From Acidobacteriota bacterium (GTDB lineage: Bacteria > Acidobacteriota > Aminicenantia > Aminicenantales > Saccharicenantaceae), in the NCBI GenBank assembly GCA_039683095.1, contig JBDKSB010000012.1:929846-993845 (forward strand): a DNA stretch of 64,000 bases, read 5' to 3'. A model generated the notes under the pieces. The model saw only the letters and a program-made list of their open reading frames with translations, had not been told where the DNA came from and ran no database searches. The position numbers and the translations under genes were made by a program. This document shows, in pieces, positions 1-8,846 of the stretch (the first letter of the stretch is position 1; every line of letters starts with the position of its first letter).

Positions 1-740
1 GCCGGGCCCGTCCTCGTTGTATTGGCCGTCATGGTCGTTGTCGAGGCCTTCGGCATAGACCTTCCAGAGGCCCTTCTCTCCTTTGACGCCGTCCGCCTGC
101 TTCATCAGGCGCGGCTCGCCCGTGACGGCCGTCCACGTGCCCTCGGGGTCCTTGACCCGCATCTGGGTGATCAGGCCGTCGCCGTCGAGGTCGTCGGGGC
201 CGTCCTCGTCGGTCGCGTCGTCCTGGTCGTCGTTCATCGGGCGGCCGTTGCGGGCGTCGCGGAGCTGGGGCTTGGCGAAATAGCGGGCCGCCGCGTCGGG
301 GTTGCCGCAGGCCAGGATGTACCAGGTCCGGTCGGCGCGCAGGTCGGCTTTGGCGCAGACCGACTTGGCCAGCCAGAGCCCGGCCTCGGCGGCGATCGGC
401 ACCGTGCCGTCCATGTCGGCCGCGACGAAGACGGCCGGCAGGGCCTTGGCGGCTTTGGCCGTTTCAGGTCCGACCTCGAGCAGGACGAGGTCGCGTCCGC
501 CCGGGCTTTTGGCCAGGACATAGGCCTTGGCAAATGACGGGTTCGCCCGGGCCAGGTCCTGGAGGGCGGCGGCGATCTCCTCCGGCCGGTGGTAGCGGTC
601 GAAGGCCGGCGCGGGGGCCGGGGCCTGGGGGCTGTCCCCGGTGGGAACGGCCCCTCCCGGGCTCGCGGCCGAAAGAGGCGCCAGGGCGAAACAGACGAGG
701 GCCAGAACGGTTAGGGCGGGGAAGCGGCGAAGGCTCACGT
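1..740 (-). CDS. Secreted protein, 3'-truncated by the window edge. The N-terminus resembles a peptidase M14 N-domain and is followed by Asp-rich Ca-binding-like repeats.
   Basis: Not in the ORF track because it runs off the edge. GTG at 738-740 is preceded by GGAGG 9 nt upstream. Signal peptide VSLRRFPALTVLALVCFALAPLSAAS. Motif FDRYHRPEEIAAALQDLARANPSF...GGRDLVLLEV matches the N-terminal pattern of the M14 protein at 36451-39372. DxDGDG-type Asp-rich stretches. No HxxE zinc motif is seen in the visible part. The sigmaW-like promoter at 826-852 lies upstream. Confidence 0.45.
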
Positions 741-825
741 GATGGTACCTCCGTTGAAGAGGATCAGTCCGACATTCTCGCAAAACGTCCGGGTCAAATC
801 AACGCGGACGTCGACTTCTTATTTA

Positions 826-852
826 GATACGCGGATCAGGCGGCAATGGTTC
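826..852 (-). promoter_or_regulatory. ECF-type promoter TTGAACC-N16-CGTATC (minus strand) upstream of the 1-740 gene
   Basis: Minus strand reads GAACC (852-848), a 16 nt spacer, then CGTATC (831-826). The architecture is identical to the promoter at 3123-3149. It matches the B. subtilis sigmaW-type consensus TGAAAC-N16-CGTA. Confidence 0.55.
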
Positions 853-892
853 AAAAAATTGAAGAATTGCGGCAGATCCGGAGCGGGGGCCG

Positions 893-1465
893 CTAGAGGT
901 TCTGGCCCGGCACCTTGCGCTCGATCTTGACGTTCAGGCGGTTTCCCAGGTAGTCGGCGGCCGAAGCGACGAGTTGCTCCAGGGCCCGGCGTTCTTTATC
1001 GAGCGGCGACTCCGTCTCGTTCAGGACACGTCGGATATCCCTGGGGGCGGACGCCAGCTGCCGGAAGGCCGCCCGGGCAGCCTCGGGGTTCCGAGCGGGA
1101 CCCCCGGGCTCCCTGCGAGCCACTAGGAAGACGACGATCCCGGCCGCGACAAGGACCAGGGCGGCCGCCGCGGCCGGCAGCGGGCGAAGGAAGCGGAAGC
1201 GACGCGCCCGGTCCTCTCCCGATCCGCCGGCCCGGCGCCCCGGCCCGGCCGGTTCCAGGTCGAGGGCGCGGCCCGCGGGGAATTCCGGGGCTTCAGCCAG
1301 CCAGGCGGCCCGCTCCGTGCGGAGCCGCGAAGCAAGCGACGCGGACCGCCGGGCGAATTCGCCGCAGGCGGCGCAGCCGCGGACATGGCTCGCGACCCAG
1401 CGAGGCGGCTTTTTCCCGGTGTCCTCCGCCCTCGAGATCATCCAGCGGCTGAGCGCGCATACCAT
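893..1465 (-). CDS. Anti-sigma factor, zinc-finger type with one transmembrane helix
   Basis: Immediately downstream of the ECF sigma gene. Start at ATG 1465 (MVCALSRW; alternative 1441) overlaps or abuts the sigma stop. Has HVRGCAACGEF CxxC and a hydrophobic segment ALVLVAAGIVVFLV. The first ~67 codons of the ORF-track version (893-1666) are Arg/Gly-rich overlap with the sigma gene and were discarded. Confidence 0.6.
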   Translation of the reverse strand: MVCALSRWMISRAEDTGKKPPRWVASHVRGCAACGEFARRSASLASRLRTERAAWLAEAPEFPAGRALDLEPAGPGRRAGGSGEDRARRFRFLRPLPAAAAALVLVAAGIVVFLVARREPGGPARNPEAARAAFRQLASAPRDIRRVLNETESPLDKERRALEQLVASAADYLGNRLNVKIERKVPGQNL

Positions 1466-1482
1466 CGCCCTTCTCCTTTCCC

Positions 1483-2106
1483 TCAACTCCGGGCCGCCGC
1501 GCGCGGCGCCCCGGTCCTCGGCCGCGCGGCCGCGCCCGCTTCCGGTCCGAGACGGCCGGCCAGGGACGTCCGGGCCCGGTGCAGGAGCACACGGACGGCC
1601 AGCGGAGACCGGCCGATCACGGCCGCGATTTCGGCGATGCTCATGTCCTCGCCGTAGCGCAGCCACAGCGCCCGGAAGCGGTCCCCGCCGAGGGCCCGGG
1701 CCGCGTCCCAGGCGCCCGAGGCCCCCGCCGCGCCGCCCGCGTCTTCTGTCTTCGCGGCCTGGTCGGCGGCGTCCTCGATCCTCGCCCCGGCCAGCCGCCC
1801 GCGCGCCGCCGCTTTCTTACGATAGGCGTCGATGGCCAGCCGGCCGGCCGAGGTGTAGAGCCAGGTCGAGAACCGGAAGGCCGGGTCGTACGCGGCGATG
1901 TTCCGGTAGAGCTTGAGGAACGTGTCCTGGACCAGGTCCTCGGCGTCCTCGTCGCTCCCGGCCCGGGCGCGCACATAGACGAAGAGCCGGCGCCTGTAGC
2001 GGCAGGCCAGCTCCTCGAAAGACCGGCGCGAGCCAGCCCGCGCCTCGCGGCCCAGCTCTTCGTCGGTCTTCCCGCTTATCGGATCGTAATCGGCCATGCT
2101 CTCCAC
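1483..2106 (-). CDS. ECF RNA polymerase sigma-70 factor (sigma-24 family)
   Basis: Region 2 motif EDLVQDTFLKLYRNIAAYDP and region 4 SIAEIAAVIGRSPLAVRVLLHRAR, at ~200 aa. Confidence 0.9.
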   Translation of the reverse strand: MESMADYDPISGKTDEELGREARAGSRRSFEELACRYRRRLFVYVRARAGSDEDAEDLVQDTFLKLYRNIAAYDPAFRFSTWLYTSAGRLAIDAYRKKAAARGRLAGARIEDAADQAAKTEDAGGAAGASGAWDAARALGGDRFRALWLRYGEDMSIAEIAAVIGRSPLAVRVLLHRARTSLAGRLGPEAGAAARPRTGAPRAAARS

Positions 2107-2149
2107 GGGGCCCCGGCCGTCCGGGGCCCGCTCATCCCTCGTTCAGGGC

Positions 2150-3085
2150 TCAGTCGAGGAAGCCGTGGAGGCCGTGTCCCTTCGAAAGAAGGTCCGCGAT
2201 CTCCCGCGACGGCCGCTCGAACTCGATCTTGAAGACCTTGCCGTTCACGTCGAACCTGATCCCCTCGAGGAGCGAGGCGATCTTCGCCGCGCTCTCCTGA
2301 TCCTCGCTCAGCCTGGCCATGGCCATCAGTCCCTGGGCCACGTCGGCCATGTTCCTGGCGCTCTCGGGCGAGTCGGCCGTGACCTGGAGCCGGACCTGGA
2401 GGATGTCCTTCTTCTCCTGGGCCAGGAAGAACAGGCCCGTGGCCTTCTCCAGGACCTTGGACCGGCCGATCTCCCGGCCCAGCCCGCCGAGGTCCGGCAG
2501 CACGCCGCTGACGAAGGCCGTCGCGGGGACATCCTTGAGCGCCGCGCTCAAGGCGGTCCCGGCGTAATTCTTGGCCTTGCCGGAGGCCGCGTCGAGCGCC
2601 TTCTCGAGGCCCTCGGCGCTCTCGGAGAGCACGACGAGCCCGTCGTTGACGAAGGCGCCGAACCTGTCATGGCCGGCCGAGTAGATCGTGAAGGACCCGT
2701 AGGCGGTCTCCTTGTTATTCGTGTCCGCCGCGATCATGGCCAGGATCCTCTTTTTATCGAACTTCCCGGCGACCGCGACGACGGTGGCCCCGTTCTTCCC
2801 AGAGGCCTGGGGCAGCTCGATCCCGAAAAGGGTCACCCCGGTGACATCCTTGGTCAGGTCCATCTGGAGCCAGTCATTGACCTTCCGGCTCTTGACCTCG
2901 AAGGCGCCGCTCTTCTCGAGGCAGCCGTAGAGGCTGGTGGCGACGAACTTCTGCATGTCCAGGTGGACGACCCACTTGGCGCCCTCGGGGACGACCGACG
3001 CGGGGACGGTCCCGGGGAAGGCCGGGACAACAAAGAACAGGGCGATGGCAAGCAGGGCCGCGATCAGCGAAGCCATTTTCTTCAT
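2150..3085 (-). CDS. Secreted protein of unknown function, first gene of the ECF operon
   Basis: Start re-assigned to MKKMASLIAALLAIALFFVVPAFP (ATG 3085), a clean signal peptide. The ORF-track start at 3151 adds a junk leader. It is followed 44 bp later by the sigma gene. Confidence 0.6.
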   Translation of the reverse strand: MKKMASLIAALLAIALFFVVPAFPGTVPASVVPEGAKWVVHLDMQKFVATSLYGCLEKSGAFEVKSRKVNDWLQMDLTKDVTGVTLFGIELPQASGKNGATVVAVAGKFDKKRILAMIAADTNNKETAYGSFTIYSAGHDRFGAFVNDGLVVLSESAEGLEKALDAASGKAKNYAGTALSAALKDVPATAFVSGVLPDLGGLGREIGRSKVLEKATGLFFLAQEKKDILQVRLQVTADSPESARNMADVAQGLMAMARLSEDQESAAKIASLLEGIRFDVNGKVFKIEFERPSREIADLLSKGHGLHGFLD

Positions 3086-3122
3086 CGTTCTTGCTCCTCT
3101 CTGAATGATCTGTCCGCCCTGT

Positions 3123-3149
3123 GATACGCGCCGGGCGCCCGGTTGTTTC
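3123..3149 (-). promoter_or_regulatory. ECF-type autoregulatory promoter TGAAAC-N16-CGTATC (minus strand)
   Basis: Minus strand reads GTGAAAC (3149-3145), a 16 nt spacer, then CGTATC (3128-3123), 38 nt upstream of ATG 3085. This is an exact sigmaW-type consensus. Confidence 0.6.
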
Positions 3150-3192
3150 ACTTCCCGCCGCTAAAGATCGAAGCGGCGAGGATCATCGCCCG

Positions 3193-4671
3193 TCAAACCG
3201 CGCGGGCTTTGCGCACGGCGGCCTGCCAGCCCGCGTAGAGCTTATCGGCCTGGGCGCGGGTCATGGCCGGGATGAACTTGCGCTCGTCGACGGCCAGGCG
3301 CTCGATGGCCGCGGTCGAGTCCCATAGCCCGGCGCCCAGCCCCGCCAGCCAGGCGGCTCCGAGCGAGGTCGTTTCCACGGCCTTGGGCCGGACGACCGGG
3401 AGGCCGAGGACGTCGGCCTGGAACCGGCAGAGGAAGTCGTTGGCCGAGGCGCCGCCGTCCACCCGAAGCTCGCGCACCCGCAGCCCAGATTCCTTGCGCA
3501 TGGTCTCCAGGACATCCCGGGTCGAGTAAGCCATGGCTTCGAGGGCCGCCCGGACGAGATGATCGCGGTTGGCGCCGCGCGTCAGCCCGACGATCGTGCC
3601 CCGGGCCTCGGAGTCCCAGTAGGGCGCGCCGAGCCCGACGAAGGCCGGGACGAAGTAAACGCCCGCGCTGTCCGCGACCGACGCGGCGGCGGCCTCCGAC
3701 TCGGCCGCCGTGCCGATCAGGCCGAGCTGGTCGCGCAGCCACTGGACGGCCGCCCCGGCCACGAACACCGATCCCTCGAGGGCGTAGGCGGCCTTGCCGC
3801 CGGGGCCGCAGGCGACGGTCGTGATCAGGCCGTGCTTGGACTCGACGGCCTCCCGCCCGGTGTTGAGCAGGATGAAAGAGCCGGTGCCGTAGGTGTTCTT
3901 GATCGCGCCCGGCCGGAATCCGGCCTGGCCGAAAAGGGCCGCCTGCTGGTCGCCGGCGATGCCCATGACCGGGATGCCCGCCGGGAGACGGCCCAGGCGG
4001 ACCGTTCGTCCGAACTCGCCCGACGACGGAAGGACGCGCGGCAGGAGGGCGGCCGGGACGCCGAAGAGATCTAGCAGGTCCGCGTCCCAGTCGAGCCGGC
4101 GGATGTTGAAGAGCATGGTCCGCGAGGCGTTGGTCGGGTCGGTGGCGTGGCTGGCCCCGCCGGTCAGCTTCCACAGGGTCCAGGAGTCCGTGGTGCCGAA
4201 GGCCAGCCGTCCCCGCCGGGCCCGCTCGCGAAGGCCGCCGCGGTCGAGGATCCACTCCGCCTTGGTCGCCGAGAAGTAGGCGTCGATCGGCAGGCCGGTC
4301 CTTTTCCGGATGAGCCGGCTCATCCCCGGCCTGGCAGCCAGCTCGCGGCAGCGGCCGGCGGTCCGGCGGCACTGCCAGACGATGGCCTTGGCCACGGGCC
4401 GCCCCGACCGCCGGTCCCAGACGACGGTCGTCTCGCGCTGGTTGGTGACGCCCACCGCGGCGATCGAACGTCCGGGAACGCTTTCGAGAACCCTCTGGAC
4501 CGTCCGGAAGACGCTCCGCCAGATCTCCTCCGGGTCGTGCTCGACCCAGCCGGGCTTGGGAAAATACTGCGGGAACTCCTCGTAGGCCGAGGCGACGGCC
4601 CGGCCGCGCTTGTCGAAGACGATGGCCCGGCTGCCGGTCGTGCCCTGATCGATGGCCAGGACGTGGCTCAT
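3193..4671 (-). CDS. glpK: Glycerol kinase
   Basis: Full-length FGGY kinase. Starts MSHVLAIDQGTTGSRAIVFD and carries GTGSFILLNTG and other GlpK signatures, at 492 aa. Confidence 0.95.
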   Translation of the reverse strand: MSHVLAIDQGTTGSRAIVFDKRGRAVASAYEEFPQYFPKPGWVEHDPEEIWRSVFRTVQRVLESVPGRSIAAVGVTNQRETTVVWDRRSGRPVAKAIVWQCRRTAGRCRELAARPGMSRLIRKRTGLPIDAYFSATKAEWILDRGGLRERARRGRLAFGTTDSWTLWKLTGGASHATDPTNASRTMLFNIRRLDWDADLLDLFGVPAALLPRVLPSSGEFGRTVRLGRLPAGIPVMGIAGDQQAALFGQAGFRPGAIKNTYGTGSFILLNTGREAVESKHGLITTVACGPGGKAAYALEGSVFVAGAAVQWLRDQLGLIGTAAESEAAAASVADSAGVYFVPAFVGLGAPYWDSEARGTIVGLTRGANRDHLVRAALEAMAYSTRDVLETMRKESGLRVRELRVDGGASANDFLCRFQADVLGLPVVRPKAVETTSLGAAWLAGLGAGLWDSTAAIERLAVDERKFIPAMTRAQADKLYAGWQAAVRKARAV

Positions 4672-4672
4672 G

Positions 4673-5515
4673 TCAGGCCCTCGTCCCGGTCCAATCTAGG
4701 ATGTCGGCAAAGACCTTGTCGCGGCCGAGGTCGATGTAGAGCGCGTGGAACATGTCCGGATACTCGATGAGCGTCTTGTCGGCCGCGGCCAGCCGGGCGA
4801 AGATGCGGCGGGCGGCCCTCTCGTCGACGAGACGATCGACGCCGGGGACGAGGAAGAGCGCCGGCGCCGCGAACGTCCGGGCCAGGCGCCCCGCCCGGGC
4901 CTGGACTGGAAGGAAGCCGCGCATGAGCCCGAGGCTGGCGACCCGCAGCTCGTCCGGGCTTTCGTTCATGACCGCCGCATAATCCGGATCGCGCGTCGCC
5001 ATCTCCGAGGTGAACGGCAGATCGACCATGGATTTCGGATGGAACGGCGTGACCAGGGCGACCTTGACATAAGCGCCCGGGGGGAACTTCATCCCGTTCT
5101 TGAAGGCCGGCGCCATGAGGACCGCGCCGGCGAACAGGCCGGGCCGGCGGCCGGCCAGGTCGTAGGCGATGAGTCCGCCCATGCTCTCGCCGGCGAGGAA
5201 GACCTTTTTCCCCGGAAAGTCCCGCCCGATCGCCTCCCTCAGGGCCAGGAGGTCCCGGTGCCAGACCTCGAAGGAAGCGACGTGGCCGCGCGGCCGCTCG
5301 GGCGTCCGGCCGAAGCCGCGGAGTTCTATGGCGTACGAAGCATAGCCGCGCCCGGCCGCGGCGCGGGCGAAAAAATCCCAGCGGCCCGAGTGGGCGCCCA
5401 GCCCGTGGACAAGGAGAAAGACGGCCTTGGGCGGGACCGGGCCGGCAACTGCGGACGGCGATGGCTCGGCATCCCAGCGGCGGAACAGGAGATCGGTCCC
5501 TTGGAGGCCGCTCAT
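4673..5515 (-). CDS. Alpha/beta hydrolase (lysophospholipase or monoacylglycerol lipase-like)
   Basis: HGLGAHSGRW oxyanion region and GESMGG nucleophile elbow. It sits 1 nt from glpK, so the two are co-transcribed. Confidence 0.85.
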   Translation of the reverse strand: MSGLQGTDLLFRRWDAEPSPSAVAGPVPPKAVFLLVHGLGAHSGRWDFFARAAAGRGYASYAIELRGFGRTPERPRGHVASFEVWHRDLLALREAIGRDFPGKKVFLAGESMGGLIAYDLAGRRPGLFAGAVLMAPAFKNGMKFPPGAYVKVALVTPFHPKSMVDLPFTSEMATRDPDYAAVMNESPDELRVASLGLMRGFLPVQARAGRLARTFAAPALFLVPGVDRLVDERAARRIFARLAAADKTLIEYPDMFHALYIDLGRDKVFADILDWTGTRA

Positions 5516-5522
5516 GGCCGGA

Positions 5523-5531
5523 TTATAGCAA
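5523..5531 (-). promoter_or_regulatory. Extended -10 (TGCTATAAT) about 7 nt upstream of the hydrolase ATG; leaderless-type promoter
   Basis: Minus strand reads ggctTTGCTATAATccggccATG. There is no SD between the -10 and the ATG. Confidence 0.4.
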
Positions 5532-5609
5532 AGCCCCGCCCGGCGTGTCTTGCGCCGCCCGGTGCTTCTTTGTTATGATAAGGCCGTAAATCCGGAACAA
5601 GGAGGTCTG

Positions 5610-5810
5610 GTGGGTAGAGGAAACAGAGCTTTCAAGAGCGAAAAACGGTCCAAAGAGCTGAGAAGACTGAAGAAACAGGAAGAGAAGCGGTTGCGGCGCC
5701 TGGGCAAGATCGCCAATCCCGAGGGTGAGCCCGAGGTCTTTTCGCCCGACGAGGCGCCGGCCGCCCCGCCCAATCCGGACGCCCCCGAGCCCGAGCGGGA
5801 AGAGTCCTGA
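5610..5810 (+). CDS. Small hypothetical protein (~66 aa) with a basic Lys/Arg-rich N-half and an acidic Pro-rich C-half
   Basis: GTG 5610 is in frame with ORF 5550-5810 and is preceded by a perfect AAGGAGG at 5599-5605. The ORF-track TTG start at 5550 has no SD. Confidence 0.5.
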   Translation: MGRGNRAFKSEKRSKELRRLKKQEEKRLRRLGKIANPEGEPEVFSPDEAPAAPPNPDAPEPEREES

Positions 5811-5902
5811 GGCCGTCCGCGAACGGCATTTTCTCCTTTCATTCCGGCCGGGATCCCCGAGGGGGACGCCACCCGCGGCCGGATCGAACCCGGAAGGGTC
5901 CA

Positions 5903-7297
5903 ATGAAGCCCAACGCTCGTTCCGGCGGACGGGTCTGTCCGGCGATCGTGTCGATGCTCGCCGCCGCGGCGGCCGTCGCCGCGGCAGGGGGCGCGGCAGG
6001 CCGCGAACGGATCCTGTTCAAGGCCCTGCCTCCGGCCGACCCGGCCAGGCGGATCATCCAGGCCGTTCTCGACTCGAGGTTCTACTCCATGCGCGACGGT
6101 TTCCCCGCGGCGGCATGGAGGGACCTCGGCTTCGGCGGCGCGTGGGAGCGGGCCCGGCGCTATTTCCCGGCCAGCGCCTATCTCGTCCGGCCGGGCTCCT
6201 ACTTCATGACCCACGGCTTCGACGCTGATGGCCGGCTGTTCATGGAGATCCACGAATCGGCCTACCTGGCCCTCTGCGTCGAGAACTTGCGGACGTTCAC
6301 GCCGGCCGCGATCGTCGGGGATTACGGCCGCATGCTGGCCGCGGCGAACGGCCGCGAAGCCGCGGCCTTCCGGGAGAAGCTGGGCCGGCTCGAGGCCTTT
6401 TTCCGGGACGAACCGGCTCATCGAGCGCTCCGAAAGACCCTGGGCGAGGATCTCTATCTGCGGCTGCTCAGGGAGCTGCGCGAGGAGGATTACCACATGC
6501 TCGCCGGCGGACTGATGCATGAGGGCATGCACGCCGGGCTGGACGACGCCGTGGTCGGCCGGCTCCAGGCCGGGTTCAGCGCCGGCCGCGGAACCGTCGA
6601 GTGGGACGAGCTGAGAGCCTTCATGGCCGAGATCGCCTGCCACCGGCCCTTCTGCGCCTGGGCCGCGGGCGATATCGCCGGCGCGTGGCGGCGGATCGAA
6701 GACCGGCTCGGCGAGCTCGAAGGCCTGCGGAAGAGACGGGGCCTGCCGGCGGGAGCCGGGCTGGCCCGTTTCGAGAAGGCCAGGGCCGGCGCCTGGACCG
6801 GGGCCGCCCTGATCCGGCTCCGGATGCGCGAGATCTGGCAGTCCGCCGGGCGCGGCCGGGACCTGGCCGCCGCGTTCCAAAAGGACTACGTCCAGGGGGA
6901 CATTCCCGCCGATATCGGGAACCTCCTGGCCAAGCTCGACCGCGACGCGGCCGGCTTCGCGGCCTCGGCCGGCGAAGCCATCCGGGCGACCGAGGTCGCG
7001 GTCCGTTCGCTCGAGGAGGTCCTGGATGCCTGGGGAGCCTGGGCCTCCGGACGCCGCCCTTATCCTCCCCCGGTCACGGACTCCCAGGCCGTTCTCAAAC
7101 AGGTCAGCGAGATACGCTGGCCGGAACCCGATGCCGGCGCGGCGGCCGCCCTCATGAAACGGGCCGGAGAAGAGCTGTCTAGGGAGAAGGCGTCCTGGTC
7201 AGGAGGCCTTCGACTCCCCACTTTCTCTCCGCGGCCAGGAAGCGGACGGGCTTCTTCGGCGGCACGAACGACATGGCCCGCTCGGCGAAGGCCGTGA
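5903..7297 (+). CDS. Hypothetical secreted or membrane-anchored protein with an HExxH motif (putative metallopeptidase-like)
   Basis: N-terminal hydrophobic segment PAIVSMLAAAAAVAAAGG, then LMHEGMHAG. The last ~40 codons overlap the convergent GMC gene and are low complexity, so the true 3' end is uncertain. Confidence 0.5.
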   Translation: MKPNARSGGRVCPAIVSMLAAAAAVAAAGGAAGRERILFKALPPADPARRIIQAVLDSRFYSMRDGFPAAAWRDLGFGGAWERARRYFPASAYLVRPGSYFMTHGFDADGRLFMEIHESAYLALCVENLRTFTPAAIVGDYGRMLAAANGREAAAFREKLGRLEAFFRDEPAHRALRKTLGEDLYLRLLRELREEDYHMLAGGLMHEGMHAGLDDAVVGRLQAGFSAGRGTVEWDELRAFMAEIACHRPFCAWAAGDIAGAWRRIEDRLGELEGLRKRRGLPAGAGLARFEKARAGAWTGAALIRLRMREIWQSAGRGRDLAAAFQKDYVQGDIPADIGNLLAKLDRDAAGFAASAGEAIRATEVAVRSLEEVLDAWGAWASGRRPYPPPVTDSQAVLKQVSEIRWPEPDAGAAAALMKRAGEELSREKASWSGGLRLPTFSPRPGSGRASSAARTTWPARRRP

Positions 7298-8846
7298 TCG
7301 ACAGGGCCGGATTGACGCCCAGGTTCTCCGGGATCTGGGAGCCGTCACAGACGATCATCCCGGCATAGCCTTTGACCCGGTTGCGCTCGTCGATGACGCC
7401 CTCCTCCGGGGTCGGGCCGAACGAGCAGCCGCCCAGGATGTGGGCCGTGATGGGCGCGCCCACCGTGACCTCGGTGATGACGTTGGCCGGGACCGCGTCC
7501 ATCCGCCTGGCCATCCGCCGCCCGAAATCGTTGCCGGCCGGGAGCCAGGTCGGGTTCCGGCGGTCCGTGCCGGGTTCGGAGACGAGGACCGCTTCTAACG
7601 GGGCATACCAGCGCCGGCGCCGCTTCAAATGGAAATAATTGTCGACCGTCTGCATGCCCAGCAGGATGATCGTCTGCCGGGCCCAGCCGGGCGGCCGGCG
7701 CAGGCGCAGATGGCGCAGGGGATGACGCAGCTCGTTGGCCAGCCAGCGCAGGACCCGGGGCGTCCTTTTGCCGCCGTCCGTCAGGGCGGCGACAAGCGCG
7801 CACATGACGTCATGTCCTTTCCCGAAGCGCACCGGTTCGAGGTGCGTGTCGGCGTCCGGGTGGACGCTCGAGGTGATGGCCACGCCCCGGCTGAAGTCGG
7901 CGTCCCTGGCCAGCGAGCGCACGCCGAGCATGGTCTCGCTGTTCGTCCGGGCGTACTTGCCGAGAGGCGCCGGCAGGTTCGGCAGCCGGCCCTTGCGCTT
8001 CATGTCGAGCAGCAGCGTGTTCGTGCCCAGGGCGCCGGCGGCGACGACCAGCGATTTGACTCGGAAGGTCAGGCCGCGCCTTCCCCGCAACAGGCCGGTG
8101 GTCTTCCGCGTCCGGACACGATACCCGTCGCTCCCGTCGGCGGAGAGCGGCTCGATATCGACGACCTTGTTCTCGGAGAAGACCCGGGCCCCGAACTTCT
8201 CGGCGAAGTAGAGATAGTTCTTGTCCAGGCTGTTCTTGGCGTCCTTGCGGCAGCCGGTCATGCACTCGCCGCAGAGCTCGCAGCCGATGCGGTCGGGCCC
8301 TTCGCCCTCGAAATAGGGGTCCGCCGCCGGCTCCCCTTCATGGCCGAAATAAACGGCCACGTCGGTCAGCCGGTAGGTGGCCTCGCGGCCGATCTCGGCC
8401 GCCGTCTCCTTCATCAGGACGTCCTGGGCCGTCTCGACCGGGTTGCGGACGATACCGAGCATGCGGCCGGCCAGGTCGTAGTAAGGCAGGAGTCCGGCCT
8501 TGCCGCCGAGCCGGCGGACGCTGGGGCGCTCGAAGAAGACGTCGGGCGGGACGTAGAGCGTGTTGGCGTAGTTGAGGCTGCCGCCGCCGACGCCGGCCCC
8601 GGCCAGGATGAAGGCCCCGTTGAGGAGGCGCAGACGCCAGGTGCCGTAGAGGCCGAGGCCGGGCATCCAGAGGAACTTGCGCAGGTTCCAGTTGCGGCGC
8701 GGGAACTGGTCGGCGTGCCAGCGCCGGCCGGCTTCGACGACGCCGACCGAATAGCCCTTCTGGGCCAGGCGCATGGCCGCGACGGAGCCGCCGAATCCGG
8801 ACCCGACGACCAGGCAATCGAAAACGAGCTCTTCGCTCTTCTTCAT
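7179..8846 (-). CDS. GMC family FAD-dependent oxidoreductase (cholesterol oxidase-like)
   Basis: N-terminal [20 protein letters not shown] Rossmann motif and a GMC C-terminal region [29 protein letters not shown], at 555 aa. Confidence 0.85.
   Translation of the reverse strand: [555 protein letters not shown]

Follow-up and report, generated by a model that had tools for sequence, protein, structure and literature searches.

The locus described here raises the question of whether a single extracytoplasmic function (ECF) sigma factor, encoded near one end of a 64-kb stretch of a metagenome-assembled genome of Aminicenantes-type Acidobacteriota, controls both its own operon and a neighbouring operon of secreted M14 family peptidases. 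This stretch, hereafter the window, belongs to a contig of at least 1.29 Mb, and both of its strands were searched for the motif in question. An original prediction had described two minus-strand TGAAMC-N16-CGTATC sites, and direct reading of the DNA confirms that both are present as described: P2, ahead of an operon encoding a secreted protein, the sigma factor and an anti-sigma factor, and P1, in the gap between the anti-sigma gene and the first M14 gene. By comparing these sites across orthologous loci, we conclude that the locus most likely constitutes an autoregulated ECF sigma/anti-sigma module with one linked target operon.

In the circuit that we propose, P2 would drive an operon of three genes, whose products are a DUF3352-like secreted protein, an ECF sigma factor and a membrane-anchored anti-sigma factor of the zinc-binding anti-sigma (ZAS) type. 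An envelope or extracellular signal would inactivate the anti-sigma factor, and the freed sigma factor would bring RNA polymerase to P2, resulting in positive autoregulation. It would also bring polymerase to P1, boosting expression of an operon that encodes two paralogous secreted carboxypeptidases of the M14 family. This operon would additionally be transcribed from its own housekeeping-type promoter ~50 nt downstream of P1. We infer from sequence the signal, the transcription start sites and the physiological output of this circuit, and likewise that this sigma factor, and not another, reads both P2 and P1.

Two rare bipartite motifs precede the sigma and M14 operons

P2 comprises TGAAAC (3150-3145), a 16-nt spacer (3144-3129) and CGTATC (3128-3123), and P1 comprises TGAACC (853-848), a 16-nt spacer (847-832) and CGTATC (831-826). 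Both sites are intergenic and are oriented as their downstream genes. P2 can be written as GTGAAACA-N14-GCGTAT and its -10 element ends 37 nt, not 38 nt as first reported, from the ATG at 3085. The AAC/CGT architecture and the TGAAAC/CGTA pair are published signatures of ECF and SigW promoters, respectively, and P2 is an exact copy of the published SigW consensus, TGAAAC-N16-CGTA, while P1 departs from it at one -35 position (TGAACC) (PMC5758882).

The motif had been called rare by chance, and it is: GAAMC-N16-CGTATC occurs twice in the window, at P2 and P1, against 0.01 matches expected, and none of 100 shuffled sequences contained two or more. The looser pattern GAAMC-N16-CGTA returned the same two matches against 0.25 expected, with two or more in 4 of 100 shuffles. 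A position weight matrix (PWM) built from 21 orthologous sites scored P2 at 34.1 and P1 at 31.6, with the next-best site in the whole window at 8.5, although these scores are partly circular because P2 and P1 themselves belong to the training set. The gap that holds P1 is relatively AT-rich, as predicted (52-58 % GC against ~70 % in its surroundings); it spans 154 nt rather than 152 nt from the anti-sigma stop codon to the GTG start of the M14 gene, which lies at 738-736 and not at 740. The evidence supports the view that P2 and P1 behave as conserved bipartite ECF-type promoters, a view that depends on the comparisons described below.

P2 is invariant ahead of the sigma operon

Orthologous loci in which the sigma factor is 62-88 % identical to that of the window were gathered from genomes, metagenomes and assemblies, and the resulting alignment of P2 contains 15 distinct loci. 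The -35 block GTGAAACA (3144-3151, minus strand, with the core TGAAAC at 3150-3145) is invariant in all 15, as is GCGTA of the -10 block (GCGTAT, 3124-3129, 16 nt past TGAAAC), the T that follows being present in 13 of 15. The spacer is always 16 nt long, yet its sequence is free to vary, and the flank upstream of the -35 element cannot be aligned. Downstream of the -10 element, a conserved AC-GGG-G is followed by AGGAG and then by the ATG, and because this conservation runs with almost no change in length, the P2 leader has a fixed short length. An AAC-containing -35 element, a CGT-containing -10 element and a spacing of 16-17 nt ahead of the sigma factor's own operon were thus found at all 15 loci, which agrees with the autoregulatory position originally proposed for P2. 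ECF sigma factors as a rule regulate their own expression and are encoded near their target genes (PMC7826278).

Similar elements precede more distant homologues of the operon. In three such operons, two from Gammaproteobacteria and one from a metagenome, the sigma factor is 41-46 % identical to that of the window and a DUF3352-like gene again comes first, its product being 24-28 % identical. Just upstream of this first gene is TGTAAC-N17-CGTA(T/C) in two loci (L005 and L032) and TGTAAC-N17-CCTAT in the third (L007). A scan of each of these loci for additional regulon members returned this one autoregulatory site only. At the autoregulatory position, the predicted promoter motif varies with the sigma family from phylum to phylum, a pattern described as the norm in the ECF literature (PMC7826278).

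The spacer of P2 contains a palindrome, CCGGGCGCCCGG (3131-3142, minus strand), that is confined to the nearest relatives. Four loci (L047, L049, L051 and L001) have CCGG-N4-CCGG with altered central bases, and the palindrome is absent in farther orthologues. We considered whether it represents a terminator of the upstream glpK gene or a universal operator and rejected both, given that no T run follows on the coding strand and that the element is lineage-restricted. P2 is, moreover, still present in L051, which has a gene other than glpK upstream.

P1 travels with the M14 operon

The alignment of P1 comprises eight loci upstream of the M14 gene. In its -35 block (TGAACC, 848-853, minus strand), all eight loci share GA-C and seven have GAAC(C/T), and in its -10 block (GCGTAT(C), 826-832, 16 nt past TGAACC), GCGTAT is invariant in all eight. 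The -10 extension CGTATC had been described as identical between P2 and P1; this holds as far as GCGTAT is concerned, but the shared final C is coincidental, since orthologues have T, G, A or C at that position. In every arrangement where the M14 operon is linked to the sigma operon, (T/G)GAAC(C/T)-N16-GCGTAT lies 110-150 nt ahead of a conserved GGAGGTA-N-GTG start, with the variant GAGCA in L051, and L058 likewise carries the -35 block of P1.

The DNA between the anti-sigma gene and the M14 gene differs widely among these loci. Nothing intervenes in the window or in L047, whereas L049 and L051 each have one opposite-strand gene, encoding a 208-aa protein and an M24 peptidase, respectively. 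In L001, L033 and L006 the intervening DNA amounts to ~1.2, 2.3 and 3.3 kb, respectively, and in L054 and L058 it contains three and four genes. Despite these varied insertions, the M14 pair lies at most 5 kb downstream of the sigma operon in nine distinct lineages. The element is also found where the linkage itself is absent. Four M14 operons (L055, L056, L057 and L059) lack a sigma gene in the 6-8 kb of flanking sequence fetched on each side, and all four have AAC-N17-CGTA less than 200 nt from the start codon, in the same register as in P1, with a probability in shuffled sequence of 0.02-0.04 each. P1 persists through insertions and, in degenerate form, at unlinked M14 operons; the motif thus accompanies its putative target gene, as a regulon promoter should.

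P2 and P1 differ from each other in two respects. Their -35 elements form consistently distinct classes, TGAAAC at P2 versus GGAACY/TGAACC at P1, and the distance from the AAC core to CGTA is 16 nt at P2 and 17 nt at P1, the latter matching the autoregulatory sites of the distant phyla. A single sigma factor that reads both would therefore have to tolerate a shift of 1 nt. That one sigma factor could tolerate these differences in -35 sequence and spacing is plausible.

A second candidate promoter lies downstream of P1

In addition to P1, the M14 operon is preceded by a candidate housekeeping-type promoter, TTGATT (802-797)-N17-GAGAAT (779-774), with a TG at the extended -10 position (774-802, minus strand). 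This block lies ~20 nt downstream of the P1 -10 element and is kept in eight loci; L057 retains it even though the P1-like element of that locus sits elsewhere. It matches 8 of 12 consensus positions and was therefore missed by a simple sigma-70 scan. The same scan returned no site anywhere in positions 1-4000, P1 and P2 included, and we discarded housekeeping promoters as an identity for either site. Because the second block is conserved, and retained in L057, the M14 operon is probably served by two promoters in tandem, of which one is ECF-dependent and the other of the housekeeping type. It follows that the ECF sigma factor probably adds to M14 expression rather than solely driving it, given that the operon has a conserved housekeeping-like promoter of its own past P1. 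The claim that the sigma factor drives the downstream M14 gene is thus favoured in part, in that P1 stays with the gene, but a role as sole driver is not.

The M14 leader also contains, between P1 and the ribosome-binding site, a hairpin and a T run, and an RNA element such as a terminator or attenuator was considered here and rejected on the basis of an unremarkable folding score (z = -0.36) and an alignment without compensatory changes. The conserved bases of the leader fit the TTGATT-N17-GAGAAT promoter better than they fit an RNA element. An Rfam scan of positions 1-4000 (E up to 1) detected no known RNA family and returned two sub-threshold chance matches, both in coding sequence. GGAGG (752-748) is conserved ahead of the M14 GTG start. 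An invariant CCTCT occurs 8-9 nt upstream of this invariant GGAGG (748-765, minus strand), and a stem between the two could sequester the M14 Shine-Dalgarno sequence.

Extent of the regulon

Across ~400 kb of fetched loci, PWM scores above 20 were restricted to the equivalents of P2 and P1, with one exception. The exception, TGAAAC-N16-CGTATC in L059 (9789-9821; PWM score 21.7), has the second M14 gene on one side and an ABC-transporter operon on the other, making this operon a possible third member of the regulon in the L059 lineage. The description of the regulon as small therefore fits the two sites found in 64 kb; it does not extend to a conclusion about the whole genome, and the strong extra site of L059 shows that one relative has three. 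We also considered and dismissed an additional promoter in front of the DUF3943 gene that follows the M14 pair, as that position has no PWM match and only a sigma-70-like site.

Alternative explanations for P2 and P1

Several points weigh against assigning both promoters to the sigma factor encoded here. P2 and P1 differ in their -35 elements and in AAC spacing, 16 versus 17 nt. Another sigma factor could make use of a T/A-rich stretch (CGTATATA) with which P1 overlaps, and the conserved housekeeping-like promoter past P1 could by itself explain most of the expression of the M14 operon. In addition, the scan was limited to 64 kb, which leaves room for another ECF sigma factor of similar specificity elsewhere in the genome. 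One alternative is that P2 and P1 are both real ECF promoters, but that an ECF sigma factor encoded elsewhere reads one of the two, P1 being the more plausible candidate. In that case the M14 operon would lie outside the regulon of the neighbouring sigma factor. The consistent difference between the two -35 classes is in keeping with this idea, as is the finding that B. subtilis ECF sigma factors that share AAC/CGT motifs overlap in recognition (PMC5758882). Bacteria have on average ~10 ECF sigma factors (PMC7826278), and our search for ECF genes, which found no second paralogue, spanned the 64-kb window. We nonetheless consider this alternative unlikely. Both classes have an identical GCGTAT -10 element, and the -10 element is the main determinant of selectivity in the ECF pairs that have been studied (PMC5758882). 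The M14 pair remains close to the sigma operon in nine lineages whatever is inserted between them, and the AAC-N17 spacing that sets P1 apart from P2 is shared by the autoregulatory sites of the distant phyla.

It could also be argued that the conserved blocks are not ECF promoters at all but are bound by a DNA-binding regulator or belong to housekeeping promoters. The palindrome in the P2 spacer of the closest relatives would suit a regulator, and the housekeeping-like promoter conserved beside P1, together with a T/A-rich look-alike of a TATA-type -10 element that follows P1 in some loci (e.g. CGTATATATAAT in L056), would suit the second version. Yet the two blocks are dissimilar and asymmetric and are separated by a fixed 16-nt gap with a free spacer, which is the geometry of a promoter and not of a repeat operator, and the palindrome is lost in farther orthologues in which the blocks remain invariant. 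The -35 blocks GGGAAC and GTGAAAC match TTGACA poorly, the sigma-70 scan of positions 1-4000 is empty, and the motif changes along with the sigma family across phyla. We regard this explanation as very improbable. That the two matches are functionless products of chance might be suspected given that the pattern was written after the sites had been seen and that its looser version recurs at least twice in 4 of 100 shuffles. However, both motifs hold their position in independent orthologous loci while the surrounding non-coding DNA diverges, and unlinked M14 operons keep the P1 core; conservation effectively refutes this possibility.

Genes of the sigma operon

The reading in which one sigma factor serves both P2 and P1 is consistent with the products of the operon that P2 precedes. 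The sigma factor (1483-2097, minus strand; 204 aa) contains domains 2 and 4 only, the size and domain content of ECF (group IV) sigma factors (Pfam Sigma70_r2, E 9e-18; Sigma70_r4_2, E 1e-9), and scores 83.9 bits against a cut-off of 42.9 with the NCBIfam sigma70-ECF model TIGR02937. Among solved structures, that of B. subtilis SigW is the closest to it (5wuq, E 4e-13). The NCBIfam equivalog models of SigW, TIGR02948 and NF007223, return only 65.5 bits against a cut-off of 243.1 and 68.7 against 209, respectively, and scores so far below the cut-offs rule out SigW orthology. The sigma factor is a generic ECF, and the term SigW-type that was applied to this system is valid for the motif and not for the protein.

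The anti-sigma gene (893-1465, minus strand; 190 aa) starts 18 nt past the sigma stop codon and its product has a ZAS-type N-terminus, with C3 and H27-x3-C31-x2-C34 invariant in 16 orthologues. These orthologues also have one hydrophobic, putatively transmembrane, stretch and a short, conserved C-terminal tail of ~70 aa. Against Pfam (E up to 1) the protein returned noise only, and the anti-sigma zinc-finger model was not matched.

The first gene of the operon (2150-3085, minus strand) encodes a secreted protein of 311 aa that is a distant relative, and only that, of Pfam DUF3352, its score of 20 bits falling below the gathering threshold of 26.8; weak matches to the same family were obtained for 33 of 37 orthologues (best E 1.7e-5). 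The protein matches RseB and MucB only weakly, and a DUF3352-like gene accompanies the same sigma family in Gammaproteobacteria too. Between the stop codon of this gene and the ATG of the sigma gene is a strong, GC-rich hairpin, GGGCCCCGG-ACGG-CCGGGGCCC (2108-2129, minus strand). The hairpin occurs in most close orthologues and has no U tract after it. Through RNA processing, RNA stability or partial termination, it may determine how much accessory protein is made relative to sigma factor. Upstream of P2 is the glycerol kinase gene (4671-3193, minus strand), recognised in the list of open reading frames and by Pfam matches of its orthologue to FGGY_N and FGGY_C. In L006 (4073-6162), the glpK, DUF3352-like, sigma and anti-sigma genes contain several frameshifts, which are probably assembly errors and do not mark pseudogenes.

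Relationship to known ECF systems

The closest parallel is with SigW-RsiW of B. subtilis, as P2 corresponds to the SigW consensus in its -35 element, spacer length and -10 element (PMC5758882). The position of the promoter is autoregulatory in both systems, and both have a membrane-anchored anti-sigma factor with a zinc motif, here putative and read from sequence. Unlike the SigW system, the operon described here opens with an additional secreted DUF3352-like gene, its host belongs to the Acidobacteriota (Aminicenantes), and its predicted target is a pair of M14 peptidase genes, whereas the SigW regulon consists of membrane-protective and detoxification genes. The locus is also like generic modules of an ECF sigma factor and a class I anti-sigma factor (Staron 2009, Casas-Pastor 2021), in which the sigma factor has domains 2 and 4 only and the anti-sigma factor is co-transcribed. 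As in such modules, an AAC/CGT promoter precedes the sigma operon and target genes are close by (PMC7826278).

RpoE-RseA-RseB of E. coli and AlgU-MucA-MucB of P. aeruginosa differ from the present locus. There the accessory gene follows the anti-sigma gene, while here it comes first, and here the anti-sigma factor has a ZAS motif and the promoter a CGTA -10 element. RseA lacks a ZAS motif, and the -10 element of RpoE-type promoters is not CGTA. In the literature searched, we found no ECF module with a DUF3352-like first gene and an M14 pair as its target, and searches combining ECF with DUF3352 or with Aminicenantes returned nothing relevant. The main text of the ECF classification paper likewise describes no group that matches this module. 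We therefore raise, tentatively, the idea that a secreted DUF3352-like protein of the TP0453 fold (membrane- or lipid-sensing), a ZAS anti-sigma factor and an ECF sigma factor together define an undescribed ECF group, present in Acidobacteriota (Aminicenantes) and Gammaproteobacteria, whose conserved output in Aminicenantes would be a translationally coupled pair of a pseudo-M14 and an active M14 carboxypeptidase; on present evidence we hold this to be possible, but rather doubtful.

If such a group exists, it would couple the processing of extracellular peptides in an uncultured phylum to a signal from the envelope or from a substrate. The locus would in any case offer a testable circuit for an uncultured lineage, with a sigma factor, an anti-sigma factor, an accessory protein, two promoters and a defined target operon, and the pairing of promoter and sigma factor might become an orthogonal expression part. 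The general understanding of ECF regulation is unchanged, because autoregulated ECF modules with neighbouring targets are a textbook case.

The proposed M14 target pair

The target of P1 had been predicted to be a single secreted M14-N-like protein. The family assignment is borne out, but the predicted target is an operon of two M14 genes. The window holds the N-terminal 246 codons of the first (1-738, minus strand), which is cut by the window edge. This fragment matches Pfam Peptidase_M14 (E 7.7e-11) with 42.6 bits against a threshold of 21.6, and its downstream paralogue scores 126 bits. In L053, a locus of the same genome type, the first gene is full length (3711-5789; 692 aa) and overlaps the second (5786-7546; 586 aa) by 4 nt. 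The first M14 protein lacks the HxxE zinc motif, with DMDGTV in the window and N/D-M-E/D-G-x-x in ~113 of 120 orthologues, which makes it unlikely to be a conventional active peptidase. NMHGNE is present in the second, whose matches are to carboxypeptidases D, M and N. The operon may thus encode a translationally coupled pair of a pseudo-peptidase and a peptidase. No solved structure was matched when the sequence of the first M14 protein was used as a query. Both paralogues bear an Asp-rich DxDxDG insert.

Beyond the M14 pair, L053 encodes DUF3943, followed by CorA and an efflux system. A sigma-70-like TTGACG-N17-TAGAGT (L053, 7610-7638) occurs in the 135 nt that separate the second M14 gene from that for DUF3943, and no terminator was detected in this gap.

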